64,000 nt of DNA from Escherichia phage vB_EcoM_phAPEC6. Made by a program: the position numbers and the translations under genes. Below are positions 5,527 to 61,773 of this stretch, in pieces; the first letter of the stretch is position 1; each line of letters starts with the position of its first letter. The notes beneath the pieces were generated by a model. It was not told the DNA's origin. It did not search any database and saw only the letters and a list, made by a program, of their open reading frames with translations. Where the stretch lies: the sequence record MK817115.1; one strand, 5' to 3'.

Positions 5527-6096
5527 CTTGACGGGATTTGTTGAGGACTATTACATCCCCCCGCAGGGGAATGAAGGTAATAAAAAAGAGACAATTAAGT
5601 CTCTCTTGACGATGATGGCATCGGATATTATCGAATTGCGAATTTCTCAAATTTTGGACGGATCTTTCTTGTACCAAAATTTAGAGAGCGAAAGCGGGTT
5701 GCTCGGTTTCTCTCTATCGCAGTCATATGCAACGGTCGCTGGTCTTTTCATCAACAGCACTCAGTACTAACTCTATTCGATCAAAGTAGTACTTGTTCTC
5801 AAATTTTGGACGCAACTTTCTTGTAAAAATTGCGTCCGCTATCCTTGAACTCCCTTAGCAAATCTGGTAAGGTGCGAACCTTATACATCTATCTAGGAAC
5901 TCTCTGTATGCTTATCGGAGTTCTTTATACAGCCGTGTCGCCGTGATTCGTGGTCTTACATCGTGTTTGTTTGAATGCCAGTACTCTAACAGGTTTCTTC
6001 TGCTGTTCGCTACAACGGTAAAGCTCATCTATCCTTTACATTTTCAAGAGAAGTAGGTTCTCAGTGTCCATTTTTCAATGTCCGTTGTCATTTTCT
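5527..6096. ncRNA. candidate large structured non-coding element, copy A (paralog of 61208..61740)
   Basis: No conserved ORF; shares blocks with copy B (CATCCCCCCGCAGGGGA, GAAAGCGGGTTGCTC, GTTTCTCTCTATCGC, GCAACGGTCG, TGGTAAGGTGCGA, GGAGTTCTTTATACAGCCG, CTGCTGTTCG); hairpins with conserved stems and divergent loops; strand unresolved. Confidence 0.35.
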
Positions 6097-6103
6097 ATAT
6101 ACA

Positions 6104-6114
6104 TTATATCATTG
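6104..6114 (-). promoter_or_regulatory. extended -10 promoter-like motif TGATATAAT (minus strand), preceded by ATGGGACAT box
   Basis: Plus ATTATATCATT = minus AATGATATAAT; same 11-mer at 61748-61758 and TGATATAAT at 31238-31247. Confidence 0.3.
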
Positions 6115-6131
6115 GAACATATAATGTCCCA

Positions 6132-6530
6132 TTACATGTATACTTTTTTAAAATCCTTAGAACAACGATCAAAAATTGTGTTTATGAATTCAACATCTTC
6201 GATAATATTCGAATCGTTAGCAACATTTTCATTTCTTGTCGTGTTCCTATATGTGTGTTCAGGATGATTGTATACCACCTTGACTACATTATTTAGGTCT
6301 ATAAAATTTGACGTTTTTTGCGTATATGAAGCCTGAAGCTTGATGAGTTTACCATCATTCTCAAGATTGGTTTTATGAATTAGTTCTTCAATACCAGTTA
6401 AATGGCTATAGCTATCTTTTTCTTTTACAAAAGTAATAGTAACAAGAACTGCTTTCTCATCTCCCATATCGGAAATGTTTTTTACAGCACTGATAATTTC
6501 TAAGTTTGAAAAATCTAATTCTTTAAGCAT
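6132..6530 (-). CDS. hypothetical protein
   Basis: 132 aa ORF. Confidence 0.45.
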   Translation of the reverse strand: MLKELDFSNLEIISAVKNISDMGDEKAVLVTITFVKEKDSYSHLTGIEELIHKTNLENDGKLIKLQASYTQKTSNFIDLNNVVKVVYNHPEHTYRNTTRNENVANDSNIIEDVEFINTIFDRCSKDFKKVYM

Positions 6531-30885: not shown

Positions 30886-30913
30886 ATAAAAAATCCCTGC
30901 CAAAAGACAGGGA
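30886..30913 (-). terminator. terminator-like hairpin
   Basis: Stem CCCTG/CAGGG flanked by A-runs on both sides; downstream of 31018..31206. Confidence 0.3.
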
Positions 30914-31017
30914 CGAAAAACTGAAATAACACATGGAGTTCTTTTTAATTTAATAAAAAGTATTATTATTCTTATAAAAGTATTTATTAAGAACTCCACA
31001 ATATGGCTTCAAATGAA

Positions 31018-31206
31018 TCAAAAACCTTTCTGAGCTACTAGTTCACGGTACTGTGCACGAGTTAGTACACCTTGTTTGCGTAGAGCTTGTAGACCGGATA
31101 GGGTTTCACTCTTACGTTGTTCGTACATACGTTGTTCTTTAGATTGAATAACTTTCTCTTTCTTAACTTTTGCTACTGGTTCTTTTTTCTTAGGTTGTTT
31201 AGCCAT
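31018..31206 (-). CDS. small basic protein
   Basis: 62 aa, Lys-rich N-terminus. Confidence 0.4.
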   Translation of the reverse strand: MAKQPKKKEPVAKVKKEKVIQSKEQRMYEQRKSETLSGLQALRKQGVLTRAQYRELVAQKGF

Positions 31207-31237
31207 TTTATATCTCCTTCTGTATTATGATAACAAC

Positions 31238-31271
31238 ATTATATCATGTATGGGACATTATGTCCCATACA
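31238..31271 (-). promoter_or_regulatory. perfect 12-bp palindrome abutting an extended -10 element (operator-promoter candidate)
   Basis: TGTATGGGACAT-T-ATGTCCCATACA at 31247..31271; minus-strand TGATATAAT at 31238..31247, about 30 nt upstream of ATG 31206 with GGAG RBS. Confidence 0.35.
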
Positions 31272-31274
31272 ATA

Positions 31275-32714
31275 TTACATATTTTCTTCAGCAAATTCTG
31301 CAAGTGGTGAACGAACAACACCTTCTAGTTCGATGACACGACAACCTGCCCAATCTTTAAACTTCTCAGTTACATATGTCAAACCACTGTTAACAGGACT
31401 AATAAACTTACTGTCAATCTGACTCAAGTTACCCATAATTACTACTTTACAGTTTAATCCTGCTCGTGTCAAGATTGTTTTGGCTTGTGCAGGTGTAATG
31501 TTTTGGAATTCATCAACTACTAGAATAGTGTTGGTGAATGAACGTCCACGTACAAAGTTTAGTGCTTTAAATTGAATAACATTACGTTTCATAATCTCTT
31601 CAATACTACCTTGAGGGTTAGCATCATCTTTATGAAGAAACTCTAACGCGTCAATTGCGGCTCCACAGAATGGAATCACTTTTTCTGCTTCTGAACCTGG
31701 CAAGAAACCAATATCTTCAAACTGTGAGTCTTGAGTTTTAGAGAAGATGATTCGGTCGTATTTACGTTTTTCCAGTACTAATTCTAATGCAGTAGCAATC
31801 GTAATTAGTGTTTTACCAGTACCAGCAGAACCTAGCAGTACTGTTAGATGTACATCAGGATCGAGAATACTGTTGATGGCGAGTGCTTGTTGGATATTCT
31901 TTGCTTTAATATCCCATACTTTAGCACGTAAAGCTACTGATTGTCCAATATCTTGGAATACCAAAATATCTTCTGGTGTTAGTGTTCCATCATCTTCCTC
32001 AATTGCTGATTGACCTTCGTACACAAATAATACGTCTGCATCATCATATAGATAATCACCGATGCATAGATTTTGTGGGAGCAAATGCTCAATCAAGCTT
32101 TTGGAAATGTAATGATACAAACGACGACCAACTTGTTCGGATTGAATATTAGTATTGGTTAAGTTGCTGTATACTTCCCAAAAATTGATTTCCAAATGGT
32201 GTTGACCAATGTGAATCAAATCACTATCACCAATAACAATATCATGGCGATAATCTTGTACCTCGACACCATAACTTAGTGCTTTGATACGCATGTTGAT
32301 ATCACGAGTTACCAGTACTGATTCTGTTGCTAAAGCTACCAGAATGATTTTATCATCAGGTACTGTGCTTTTGAGAAGGGTTTGAACTTTCTCTTCTGAA
32401 CCTTTAGTACGAATTAGTGCTTCAGCTTCTTCGTTTGTAATAACAAACAATTTGCTATCAGGATTCATATTGGTATGAACATCAGCAATATTAACACCAG
32501 TACTACTAATCTCATCATGTGATGCATCTGCAATAATTGCTTCAATGTTACGAATAGCAACACGAGCATCGCGTGAAACATCTACATTACGACTCTTAAT
32601 TGAATCCAATTCTTCCAGTACTGTAAATGGTAGAATGATTGCAGCACCATCAAAAGCAATAGATGCATTAGGGTCAGATAGTAGTACGTTTGTGTCAATT
32701 GTATATTTTTTCAT
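31275..32714 (-). CDS. phoH: PhoH-like ATPase with N-terminal PIN domain
   Basis: 479 aa; Walker A LGSAGTGKT, Walker B VVDEFQN; N-terminal PIN-like acidic residues. Confidence 0.8.
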   Translation of the reverse strand: MKKYTIDTNVLLSDPNASIAFDGAAIILPFTVLEELDSIKSRNVDVSRDARVAIRNIEAIIADASHDEISSTGVNIADVHTNMNPDSKLFVITNEEAEALIRTKGSEEKVQTLLKSTVPDDKIILVALATESVLVTRDINMRIKALSYGVEVQDYRHDIVIGDSDLIHIGQHHLEINFWEVYSNLTNTNIQSEQVGRRLYHYISKSLIEHLLPQNLCIGDYLYDDADVLFVYEGQSAIEEDDGTLTPEDILVFQDIGQSVALRAKVWDIKAKNIQQALAINSILDPDVHLTVLLGSAGTGKTLITIATALELVLEKRKYDRIIFSKTQDSQFEDIGFLPGSEAEKVIPFCGAAIDALEFLHKDDANPQGSIEEIMKRNVIQFKALNFVRGRSFTNTILVVDEFQNITPAQAKTILTRAGLNCKVVIMGNLSQIDSKFISPVNSGLTYVTEKFKDWAGCRVIELEGVVRSPLAEFAEENM

Positions 32715-33403: not shown

Positions 33404-33955
33404 CTATAGATAACTAATTAGTAAGTTTTCTTTTTGAACCAGATACTCCAATTCTTGTCTTGCTGTACCGATGAAGTTCTGTGTCATAAGATTATTATAT
33501 CCCGCTTCTCGATTTTGTCCCTTAGAATAACGAGAAATATGACATAAATTTACACCAGCAACTTCTGCACTTGCATGTTTAGCATTAGTGTATCCATCTC
33601 TAATGTGTTTCAACTCGTCATAGGTTACTTCATAGCTAAAACTGTGACTGTTTGCACCTGGGTAAATTTCAAAAGTTTTGAGTGGTCGAAGATGGGAAAC
33701 AAAAATATTGTAATCCATTTCTTCTTGAACTTCACGACGCAACGCATCTTCTAGTGAGATATCAGTACTTTCTACGGTTCCACCACATCCACCAAGAAGA
33801 CCATCCCATCGTAATTGCAGTAATACTAAATTTACTTCTGGTATATCATTCAACTCATAGTTTTTGTAAGGGTTGCATTTTCTTGCAAAGAAATAACAAA
33901 ATACAAAATTTGCACGTGTGCCATATTCACCAAAGGGAACTTCTTTAACACTCAT
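33404..33955 (-). CDS. Nudix hydrolase
   Basis: 183 aa; Nudix-box-like GGTVESTDISLEDALRREVQEEMDY (REUxEE core present, spacing and final Gly atypical). Confidence 0.55.
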   Translation of the reverse strand: MSVKEVPFGEYGTRANFVFCYFFARKCNPYKNYELNDIPEVNLVLLQLRWDGLLGGCGGTVESTDISLEDALRREVQEEMDYNIFVSHLRPLKTFEIYPGANSHSFSYEVTYDELKHIRDGYTNAKHASAEVAGVNLCHISRYSKGQNREAGYNNLMTQNFIGTARQELEYLVQKENLLISYL

Positions 33956-34710
33956 TTCATACGTTCCTTAATTATAGTCTCTAGATGCGGTATTGCTTTG
34001 GTTGCTGGCTTGATAACTTTTTCATTAAACAAAAAATCATTATCATTTTTACGAATGTTAACATTAACACTATAACATGGTAATGCTGCTGCTAATCTCG
34101 ACCATACCAGTACTGTATCGCTACTACCAATTACAATAACTGTATCATTTTCATTAAGAGATTTCAACACATTATTTCGTTCTTCGTAAATTGGTAAGCG
34201 AATACCATCAACATAACGATGATATTCTCCAATCATTACTACATTTGGTTTAGCAAAAACATCATGTTTTGGTATGTATGGTTCGTATCCGCAGTTAATA
34301 ACATTATAATCATCGGAATTGATACTATAATTTTCAATAACTTCGCACAAGTTTCCATGAAGTTTAAGCTCATGACCACCAATACGAGTATAAAGATCGT
34401 CCATGTTAGAAGTCATATGAAGGAAGCAATCACCATATTGATCTTCTAACGATTTTATAAAATAATGCATTGCATTCGGTTCGCATTGTCCCAATTTTAC
34501 ACGTAATGTATTATAGAAAGAATGAACAACATGATATTTTGTAGTTAAACTAGCAATGTTACATACATCATTAATTTTAAATGTATCCCACAAACCATCA
34601 TCAAATCGAAAAGGTTCCATACCACTTTCAACAGAAAGTCCTGCACCTGATATAATCAGTAATCGCTTTTTACCTTCATTGCTTATAAATTTTTCTGATA
34701 TCATATTCAA
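33952..34710 (-). CDS. Sir2-family NAD-dependent protein
   Basis: 252 aa; sirtuin motifs GAGLSVESGMEPFR, HG, GSS; no obvious Zn ribbon. Confidence 0.55.
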   Translation of the reverse strand: MNMISEKFISNEGKKRLLIISGAGLSVESGMEPFRFDDGLWDTFKINDVCNIASLTTKYHVVHSFYNTLRVKLGQCEPNAMHYFIKSLEDQYGDCFLHMTSNMDDLYTRIGGHELKLHGNLCEVIENYSINSDDYNVINCGYEPYIPKHDVFAKPNVVMIGEYHRYVDGIRLPIYEERNNVLKSLNENDTVIVIGSSDTVLVWSRLAAALPCYSVNVNIRKNDNDFLFNEKVIKPATKAIPHLETIIKERMK

Positions 34711-45668: not shown

Positions 45669-46427
45669 TTACCTTTTGAAACGATTGAATGAGTACTCAT
45701 CTTTTTCTTTACGTAAGTATCTCATTCCACCACTTTGTGGAGTAGCGAGAGTTAAGTCACCCGTCAAGAACTGACTATCAATCCAAATGCGATTACCGTA
45801 AATTAGTGGATCTGTAACTGCTGTATGTCCACTAAAGACACAATGCACTCCATCTAACTTAGGTGCATAATATGTATTATTAGTTCTACAATAATCGAAT
45901 GTTTTTCTATCCCACAAGCACTTATCAATTATATCAGCACTAAGTGATTTTGTCCCATTAACAAATCGTTCCCATGTTGTATATTCCAACGGAACTCCAG
46001 CATGAACTAACCCAATCTTCAATCCTCGGTGATTGATTTGGATAATCATAGGGAGATCCTTTAAGTACTGACGAAAGAATTGAATGCCTGTTCCTCCAAC
46101 TTCATCAAGGAATTTATCACCACCATTACTTATCCAACAATGATACCAATCTCGAAGTGTTTCCGAATCAACGCACATCATCTCATGATTACCCGCAATC
46201 ATGTAACGATTTTCTCCGAACAAAAATTCAAAAAGGAGCTTTGAATTTTGTTCTCCACGGTCGATAATATCACCTACACTGAAAACATAATCATTGTGTG
46301 TAATACCAAATTCTTTCACTGTAGCATCCCATAGTTTACCATTACCATGCAAATCACCTACAATGTATAAATCTTTATCATCAGGTACGGTTACTTCTAA
46401 GAAGTGTTTCATTATTACTCCAACCAT
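45669..46427 (-). CDS. PPP-family Ser/Thr protein phosphatase
   Basis: 252 aa; GDLHGN, GDIIDRG, GNHE motifs. Confidence 0.75.
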   Translation of the reverse strand: MVGVIMKHFLEVTVPDDKDLYIVGDLHGNGKLWDATVKEFGITHNDYVFSVGDIIDRGEQNSKLLFEFLFGENRYMIAGNHEMMCVDSETLRDWYHCWISNGGDKFLDEVGGTGIQFFRQYLKDLPMIIQINHRGLKIGLVHAGVPLEYTTWERFVNGTKSLSADIIDKCLWDRKTFDYCRTNNTYYAPKLDGVHCVFSGHTAVTDPLIYGNRIWIDSQFLTGDLTLATPQSGGMRYLRKEKDEYSFNRFKR

Positions 46428-55631: not shown

Positions 55632-55680
55632 TCCTTGTGTTAATTATTGTTCCTTACCCATTATTATATCATGAATTAGA

Positions 55681-55959
55681 CTATTGTCCCTGTTTATAGC
55701 AATAAAGATTCTCTAATTTAAAATCTACTAGATCACATTCAGAACGTACTCGATTCTTGTTCCAGAATAAAATACGAATCCTTTCATAATCACGATAAAC
55801 ACTAATAATGCTTCTGTGCTTGGATTTGTAGTACTCCTGTACTATCCCCAGATACACAGTCCTCAATAAAGACTTAGTTGGATATGGCATATTCTGTGCT
55901 GACGTGATATCGTAAATCATCTTCATTGTTTCAGCAACAAGTACTTCATTTGTTCTCAT
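55681..55959 (-). CDS. hypothetical protein
   Basis: Track ORF starts at GTG 55977; ATG at 55959 (MRTNEVLV) overlaps the stop of the upstream small ORF. Confidence 0.4.
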   Translation of the reverse strand: MRTNEVLVAETMKMIYDITSAQNMPYPTKSLLRTVYLGIVQEYYKSKHRSIISVYRDYERIRILFWNKNRVRSECDLVDFKLENLYCYKQGQ

Positions 55960-61207: not shown

Positions 61208-61740
61208 TTGACGGGGTTTGCTTGAGCATATTTCATCCCCCCGCAGGGGAAAGAACAAAAAAATTTGACGCTGGTGGCCTTCACATAGTTCATATCACGA
61301 ATTCTCTTACGAGACGAAAGCGGGTTGCTCTGTTTCTCTCTATCGCGGTTCTTGTAGCAACGGTCGTCGGTCTTAAACATCCCGACACATAATACAAATA
61401 CCATATGACCAGTACTTGTATTTGATTTCACAAAATTTGGACGCAACTATATTGTATAATTCCGACCGCATATTTCTTATGAAATCTCCCTTAGATAATT
61501 GGTAAGGTGCGATCCTTATATGTCTATCGAGGAACTCTCTTTATCCTATTGGAGTTCTTTATACAGCCGCATTGCCGTGAGTGGTTCAAACTATGCCATC
61601 ATCTAACGGGTTTCATCTGCTGTTCGTACTGAAAGGACTACTCATCTACCCTCTACATTTTCGAGTGGATTAGGCTTTTAATCATTTCCTTATGGGAACC
61701 TTTCAGGATTAAAAAAAGGTGACTAACATATTATGTTGTC
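61208..61740. ncRNA. candidate large structured non-coding element, copy B (paralog of 5527..6096)
   Basis: Same conserved blocks and hairpins as copy A; no conserved ORF; strand unresolved. Confidence 0.35.
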
Positions 61741-61743
61741 ACC
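61711..61743 (-). terminator. rho-independent terminator (long bulged hairpin)
   Basis: GGTGACTAACAT-ATT-ATGTTGTCACC, A-run 61711-61717 on plus. Confidence 0.45.
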
Positions 61744-61747
61744 TTAT

Positions 61748-61758
61748 ATTATATCATT
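61748..61758 (-). promoter_or_regulatory. extended -10 promoter-like motif TGATATAAT (minus strand)
   Basis: Plus ATTATATCATT identical to 6104-6114; directly followed on minus by the hairpin (PeSL-like arrangement). Confidence 0.3.
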
Positions 61759-61773
61759 AACTTATCATTTGTC

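Follow-up and report, generated by a model that had tools for sequence, protein, structure and literature searches.

A perfect palindrome among early-type genes in the genome of an Asteriusvirus jumbo phage is probably a PeSL-type composite promoter/stem-loop cassette. PeSLs, or promoter-early stem-loops, are composite promoter/terminator cassettes reported in RB49/phi1, T4/PST and KVP40/nt-1 (Arbiol et al. 2010, PMC2839356; Comeau et al. 2014, PMC4122927). A PeSL combines a sigma-70-like promoter and a stem-loop with an AT-rich stretch and a Shine-Dalgarno sequence (PMC2839356, PMC4122927). The stem-loop can be placed in the stretch that separates the -35 box from the -10 box, over either box, or up- or downstream of them, and G-T pairs are allowed in it (PMC2839356). 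In RB49/phi1, one PeSL stem-loop cut the expression of lacZ as a strong terminator does, and strong promoter activity was shown by whole cassettes (PMC2839356, PMC4122927). Such an arrangement is already known in T4-like phages, and the present case is one more example of it, with no new mechanism.

The window, that is, the whole stretch of 64,000 nucleotides that was analysed, comes from an Asteriusvirus jumbo coliphage of the PBECO4/121Q type. The 5 kb around the palindrome share 99.5% identity with the Escherichia phages ECO103 4-12-1, SP27, G17, Sharanji and PBECO4, and 97% identity with phage 121Q. Asteriusvirus comprises jumbo myoviruses of ~350 kb, with Klebsiella phage RaK2, Cronobacter phage GAP32 and Pectobacterium phage CBB as kin. 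Coding in the window is mostly on the minus strand (62.8 kb vs 10.4 kb on the plus strand, for ORFs of at least 60 aa), with 105 non-overlapping minus-strand ORFs. Since the coding sequence is largely minus-strand, a replication origin or strand-switch signal at the palindrome was considered unlikely. The elements of the junction are as follows.

31275..32714, minus strand: gene for a PIN-PhoH ATPase with PIN_4 and PhoH domains
31247..31271, minus strand: perfect 25-nt palindrome (12+1+12), TGTATGGGACAT-T-ATGTCCCATACA, a stem-loop in the minus-sense RNA, with 5' arm 31271-31260, centre 31259 and 3' arm 31258-31247
31261..31266, minus strand: GGGACA, -35-like hexamer within the 5' arm, 17 nt upstream of TATAAT
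31238..31246, minus strand: extended -10 box TGATATAAT, abutting the 3' arm, with TATAAT at 31243-31238
31214..31219, minus strand: Shine-Dalgarno sequence AAGGAG, read from the sequence, 7 nt ahead of the ATG at 31206
31018..31206, minus strand: gene for a 62-aa lysine-rich protein, served by the promoter (phrog_24119, without assigned function)
30893..30914, minus strand: canonical intrinsic terminator GTCCCTGTC-tttt-GGCAGGGAT, then TTTTT, from the ARNOLD annotation in G17 and a terminator scan

Read along the minus strand, the PhoH/PIN stop codon TAA (31277-31275) is followed by TAT (3 nt), the palindrome, TGATATAAT, 18 nt, AAGGAG, 7 nt and the ATG. The gap from this TAA to ATG 31206, and hence between the PhoH/PIN gene and the 62-aa gene, is 68 nt, and the 23 nt upstream (GAAGAAAATATGTAATATTGTAT) are A or T at 19/23 positions. 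The terminator at 30893..30914 closes the one-gene unit of the 62-aa gene. When the 62-aa protein was searched against IMG/VR, 121Q itself was the sole match. Between this gene and its terminator, at 30935-30997, we observed an inverted repeat of 9 bp, GGAGTTCTT/AAGAACTCC, around an AT-rich loop of 45 nt. Its GAGTTCT/AGAACTC motif recurs as the stem of the terminator at ~8730 and as a hairpin in the non-coding elements described below.

The perfect 12-bp inverted repeat reported in the first-pass annotation is present at 31247-31271 on the minus strand and directly abuts TGATATAAT. It was the longest inverted repeat found in the window. In the minus-sense RNA it is predicted to form a hairpin of about -15.7 kcal/mol with an 11-bp stem, a 3-nt loop and 5 G-C pairs, and the 91-nt region folded with z = -3.05 against shuffles. 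In the DNA, the stem covers the -35 box and the whole promoter spacer. No second match to the palindrome was found in the window with up to 3 mismatches allowed (0/100 shuffles matched), and a blastn-short search for paralogues of the cassette found none, the 2 places per record being the palindrome matching itself on both strands. Rfam gave no known RNA family at the palindrome or elsewhere in the window. The centre at 31259 is A in the minus-sense window and T in G17 and in the metagenome contig OEQX01000020.1, which are otherwise near-identical; the base may simply have undergone a transversion, or the tip of the hairpin may have flipped.

The stem-loop is G+C-rich, as in an intrinsic terminator, but it lacks a T-run right after the stem, the tail TGATATAA having 3 T in its first 8 nt. 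The hairpin was missing from the terminator scan of the window and is unmarked in the ARNOLD-based annotation of G17 and in the annotation of UE-S1; many canonical terminators with T-runs exist in the window phage. Given the missing T-run and the absence from the scan and both annotations, efficient intrinsic termination here is unlikely. We also rejected an RNase III site, since this enzyme needs a stem longer than 11 bp.

Within the same DNA, the promoter scored 10/12 in the consensus scan with TG present at -15/-14, and its -35 hexamer matches TTGACA at 4/6 positions (GACA). Standard sigma-70 geometry would place the transcription start near 31231. Counted alone with at most 1 mismatch, ATGGGACAT was not enriched in the window (18 found vs 18.2 expected). 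The complete pattern GGGACA-N16/17-TATAAT occurred 5 times in the window against 0.00 expected, all on the coding strand, and 12 times, all on one strand, in the full genome of ECO103 4-12-1, which is near-identical to the window phage. The earlier reading of a promoter for the small basic protein gene is supported, with GGGACA 17 nt before TATAAT and the motif class enriched. TGATATAAT was found 12 times in the window against 3.1 expected, 11 of them on the minus strand, and 47 times in ECO103 4-12-1, ~40 of them on the strand of the GGGACA motif; the looser pattern xxGACR-N16/17-TAnAAT gave 11 minus-strand and 0 plus-strand hits in the window.

In 8/12 TGATATAAT copies, upstream alignment placed one of the boxes GGGACA, GAGACA, TGGACA and GTGAACA where a -35 element would be. 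TTGAC[AG] promoters lack the TG extension, whereas GGGACA-type boxes almost always have TG. This pattern fits the usual trade-off between the quality of a -35 box and an extended -10 box. Likewise, the junction promoter resembles extended -10 (TGnTATAAT) promoters with a weak -35 in its TG at -15/-14, perfect TATAAT and 17-nt spacer, but differs from them in that its two non-consensus bases (GG) are non-random. The presence of this GG in the 5 window and 12 genome sites suggests a phage-specific preference. Because GGGACA stands exactly 17 nt before TATAAT, we regard it as the -35-like hexamer itself and not as a separate operator, and its recurrence is that of a putative promoter class, not of an operator. 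An antisense promoter starting from the plus-strand GGGACA was rejected, as the hexamers 16-18 nt downstream (ATTACA, TTACAT, TACATA) are poor -10 boxes. The other copies in the window are the following.

6103..6130, minus strand: second GGGACA promoter, with the short stem-loop GGGACAT-TAT-ATGTTCC (6130-6114, one G.U pair), then TGATATAAT (6111-6103)
33494..33521, minus strand: GGGACA-N16-TATAAT promoter-like site in the 3' part of a Nudix hydrolase gene, ~100 nt before the next gene
45928..45956, minus strand: GGGACA-N17-TATAAT with TGA before TATAAT, the -10 box flanked by a 6-bp inverted repeat CACTTA/TAAGTG
55663..55690, minus strand: GGGACA-N16-TATAAT with TGA before TATAAT, followed downstream by a Shine-Dalgarno sequence and start codon

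The second GGGACA promoter begins 1 nt after a stop codon, ahead of a long non-coding stretch. The box had been said to recur there at the same distance upstream of a TGATATAAT motif at 6104-6114; ATGGGACAT does recur, at 6124-6132, with TGATATAAT at 6103-6111, and the spacing is equal only to within one base (16 nt to TATAAT vs 17). The site at 33494..33521 is a probable internal promoter. In ECO103 4-12-1, one GGGACA-N17-TATAAT copy with TGA before TATAAT lies directly upstream of a tRNA-like GGTGAAGTGGCAGAGCGG... (34075-34175, record ~34.1 kb), so the class would also serve RNA genes, and other copies precede small ORFs and the non-coding "element A". At 1990-2170 of the same genome (record ~101.9 kb), two GGGACA promoters stand in tandem ahead of one gene, at a distance of 76 nt from each other, and the inverted repeat TTTGTC...GACAAA separates the two.

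A phage-encoded RpoD-like sigma is mentioned in PMC11895373, and RpoD-like, TGAAACG-type and ATAAATA-type promoters were predicted in the jumbo phage CBB (PMC5259590). Our literature search found no published description of a GGGACA promoter class or of PeSLs in Asteriusvirus. We give a low probability to the idea that GGGACA-N13/14-TGATATAAT is a dedicated class read by a phage RpoD-like sigma, or by a phage factor retargeting region 4, and not by unmodified sigma-70. Such a class would drive small early proteins, a tRNA gene and two paralogous non-coding RNAs, and the palindrome would make the PhoH-junction promoter topology- or factor-responsive.

To describe conservation within the genus, nine distinct Asteriusvirus versions were compared, namely window/121Q, G17, ph0011, UE-S1, JP4, Ecwhy_1, WPEC5, TH47 and CMSTMSU. 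Across these versions no change occurs in the 3' arm GTCCCATACA or in the -10 box, and only 2 positions of the 5' arm differ, while the five central bases vary freely (ATAAT, ATTAT, AATAT, GTACT, ATATC and the 1-nt-shorter AT-TC). The palindrome measures 24 nt in Ecwhy_1, WPEC5 and TH47, and 22 nt in CMSTMSU, where one arm is shorter by 2 nt; the arm cores are kept. Compared with Ecwhy_1, 0/20 arm positions had changed against 19/31 in the 31-nt leader (p = 3e-6). Two A-to-G stem changes in relatives yield G.U pairs in the minus-sense RNA, and so does the sole mismatch of the hairpin at 6103. Variants with a stem of at least 10 bp fold at -15.2 to -15.7 kcal/mol, and the truncated CMSTMSU version at -11.6 kcal/mol. 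Two-sided compensatory changes within the clade amounted to 0 pairs, and covariation is uninformative. We read the element at the RNA level because of its conservation, the direction of the G.U changes and the positional analogy described below, not because of covariation.

Two further members of the genus, A4 and Turkey5, keep the small gene without the GGGAC palindrome and have a canonical TTGACA promoter at the same place. There, an inverted repeat lies over the -10 box, GTGTTCA...TGAACAC in A4 and GCGTCCAT...ATGGACGC in Turkey5. No donor copy of either cassette was found in one full relative genome. A scan of metagenomes that took the 3' end of PhoH as its anchor returned one contig with a G17-type palindrome and one chance match, with no new variants, and an IMG/VR scan for ATGGGAC-N3-6-GTCCCAT gave >120 unrelated chance matches.

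In all relatives examined, a hairpin is found a few nt 3' of the PhoH stop codon. In the more distant phages RaK2, EJP2, CBB, 7t3 and Yen9-04 it lies 5-8 nt past the stop and apart from any promoter, and clear T-runs follow it in 3/5 of them (CBB, 7t3 and Yen9-04). RaK2 has TTTCGGTACTGA-acaacac-TCAGTACCGAAA followed by TTTAAAA, a separate TTGACA-N17-TATAAT promoter and a homologous small gene. In EJP2, where the PhoH locus has extra sequence and a different next gene, GGGGGAGT-ttcaat-ACTCCCCC is followed by ATTCATTT, and the next promoter is 250 nt on. CBB has GGGGATAC-ttag-GTATCCCC and then TTTTTAA, Salmonella phage 7t3 has TGGGGCA-gtac-TGCCCCA and then TTTCTTTT, and Yersinia phage fHe-Yen9-04 has GGGGATA-tttcgg-TATCCC and then TTTTT. 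Since hairpins of differing sequence occupy the same position 3' of PhoH, the stem-loop is conserved as a structure while its sequence has been replaced. The palindrome shares with the PhoH terminators of CBB, 7t3 and fHe-Yen9-04 the position and a similar GGG...CCC core, the stability being similar or higher in those phages, but it lacks a T-run and is followed by TGATATAAT. In the 121Q clade, the PhoH 3' stem-loop appears to have merged with the next promoter. In 7t3 itself, at 1205-1225 past the PhoH terminator, TGATATAAT runs right up to the ATG that is annotated as the start of the next gene, so that either this start codon is mis-annotated or TGATATAAT has another role there.

Stem-loops also accompany other promoters of the window. 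When all 19 promoter-like sites were compared with coding background, folding energy was no different (p = 0.41), a comparison confounded by base composition; we therefore replaced it with per-site shuffles at the 10 intergenic promoter sites, where the mean z was -1.84 (p = 0.006). By dinucleotide shuffles, 6/10 of these sites fold significantly better than expected (z <= -2.1). At 63492-63422 (minus strand), both the spacer and the -10 box lie inside a 10-bp stem, ATGTGAACAT/ATGTTCACAT, after which comes T7. The 5' arm of this stem holds the -35-like box and its 3' arm overlaps TATAAT, with CTTTTTTT, a Shine-Dalgarno sequence and ATG beyond. At 15578-15512 (minus strand), the hairpin AGCTCGTC-tatt-GACGGGCT overlaps a TTGACG -35 box, and its T-run TTTTCTTTT is the spacer before TATAAT. 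These two sites are clear candidates for terminator-promoter fusions. At 8781-8707 (TTGACA-N17-TATAAT) and 61779-61720 (GAGACA-N16-TATAAT), both strong promoter-like sites on the minus strand, a hairpin follows within 1-3 nt and then 7-8 T, so that the start of the transcript would coincide with a terminator-like structure or fall slightly within its 5' side. A terminator-then-promoter order is found in the full relative genome as well, with AGGGACTC-ttcg-GAGTCCCT, TTTCTTTTTT and then TTGACA.

Two paralogous minus-strand stretches, 5678-6131 (454 nt) and 61447-61773 (327 nt), contain no minus-strand ORF of at least 40 aa, and both start right after a GGGACA/GAGACA-TGATATAAT promoter. They have long, conserved blocks in common, e.g. 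GAAAATGTARAGGRTAGATGAG, CGAACAGCAGAWGAAACCYGTTAGA, GCGGCTGTATAAAGAACTCC and TCGCACCTTACCA. Neither gave an Rfam match at the gathering threshold, and the first copy gave none at E <=1 either. Together, these stretches ("element A") look like an undescribed structured RNA.

Compared with the T4-like PeSLs, the junction follows the same order, from an upstream stop codon through an AT-rich stretch and -35/-10 boxes spaced by ~17 nt to a Shine-Dalgarno sequence and a small ORF's start codon. The short stop-to-start gap is occupied, the boxes are sigma-70-like although the -35 box agrees with consensus at only 4/6 positions, and the stable stem-loop sits at the promoter as in the -35-overlap and spacer subclasses of PMC2839356. 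In both cases G-T pairs are tolerated and stems with a G-run and a C-run are common. The candidate cassettes here also seem to be frequent among small genes without known function, as PeSLs are, and they may likewise be exchanged at a given locus between related phages. The differences are that the host is an Asteriusvirus jumbo phage, only distantly T4-like, that the -35 box is GGGACA, compensated by the extended -10, in place of the TTGACA or TTTACW of PeSLs, and that a perfect 12-bp palindrome takes up the -35 box and the entire spacer. Unlike in RB49, the candidate cassettes of the window do not form a repeated sequence family and their stems differ. With no repeated family and no donor copy, the recombination role of PeSLs is not supported here, and a mini-circle role is not evident.

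If the element works as such a cassette, polymerase arriving from the PhoH operon would transcribe the palindrome, whose RNA would fold into the 11-bp hairpin at or near the 3' end of the PhoH/PIN transcripts, the stop codon lying 3 nt before it. There the hairpin would attenuate or leakily terminate the upstream transcript, protect its 3' end, or do both, and would thereby insulate the small gene from read-through. Since the extended -10 box stands here in place of the T-run seen in several relatives, termination is probably weak, and partial termination or 3'-end protection is the likely effect on upstream transcripts. GGGACA and TGATATAAT in the same DNA would recruit a sigma-70-family holoenzyme, and the new transcript from ~31231 would not contain the hairpin. 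The first-pass annotation had offered an RNA processing hairpin as one of its two readings; a hairpin is indeed what comes closest to the evidence, given that one follows the PhoH stop in all relatives examined, but nothing points to processing.

Its other reading, an operator or activator site, is not supported by the present data. A dimeric phage or host protein, perhaps the 62-aa basic protein, would cover the -35 box and spacer and in this way repress or activate the promoter, and the perfect 25-bp dyad symmetry over this part of the core promoter is indeed the classical position for a repressor. Both arms are conserved around a variable centre, as in some operators, and the product of the next gene is small and very basic. 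However, the 62-aa protein gave no HTH, RHH or other DNA-binding domain match in Pfam or PHROGs, its C-terminus showing only a weak, sub-threshold SHOCT-like match. The palindrome is unique in the window and in the full relative genome, where GGGAC...GTYCC occurs at only five places, which include the palindrome site, the 6103-type promoter, one ordinary terminator and one place without promoter-like flank. Half-site spacing is not kept either: a centre shortened by 1 nt between preserved arms is tolerated by a hairpin but usually not by a dimeric operator, and the CMSTMSU arm is 2 nt shorter. A4 and Turkey5 retain the gene but swap the palindrome for unrelated inverted repeats over the -10 box, and in the five distant relatives the hairpin stands apart from the promoter, three times with a clear T-run. 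We therefore consider an operator distinctly unlikely.

A cruciform extruded under negative supercoiling, switching the promoter off or on, is the least probable of the readings, and we regard it as highly improbable. Perfect palindromes with an A/T centre in AT-rich DNA can extrude, and the present 25-bp palindrome is of this type and spans the -35 box and spacer; several other window promoters also have inverted repeats bracketing the -10 box. If the cruciform were real, the small gene would be sensitive to the topology of injected or replicating phage DNA. Against it, G.U pairs can accommodate the imperfections in relatives and at 6103 in the transcribed sense only, loops of 4-5 nt and of 21 nt (63459) disfavour cruciforms and suit RNA, and the equivalent hairpins with clear T-runs in three distant relatives are RNA terminators. 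It is also unlikely that the palindrome has no present function, being either a decayed ancestral PhoH terminator hairpin or a template-switch product that persists because the 5' arm is needed for the -35 box and the phages are closely related. The missing T-run, which makes classical termination doubtful, the lack of two-sided covariation and the >97% identity of most palindrome-bearing sequences agree with such a remnant. Yet a sigma-70 promoter normally leaves its spacer unconstrained, and the 3' arm, although part of that spacer, stayed invariant where loop and leader diverged; moreover, lineages that lost the palindrome gained another hairpin at the same promoter.

As a PeSL-type cassette, the junction would indicate that the T4-type packing of stem-loop and early promoter in a single short cassette reaches as far as a distant jumbo-phage lineage. 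At present, Asteriusvirus annotations are almost without regulatory features, and the promoter consensus obtained here (an a/t-rich stretch, GGGACA, 16-17 nt and TATAAT, usually with TGA before it) may be used for annotating the transcription units of these phages.
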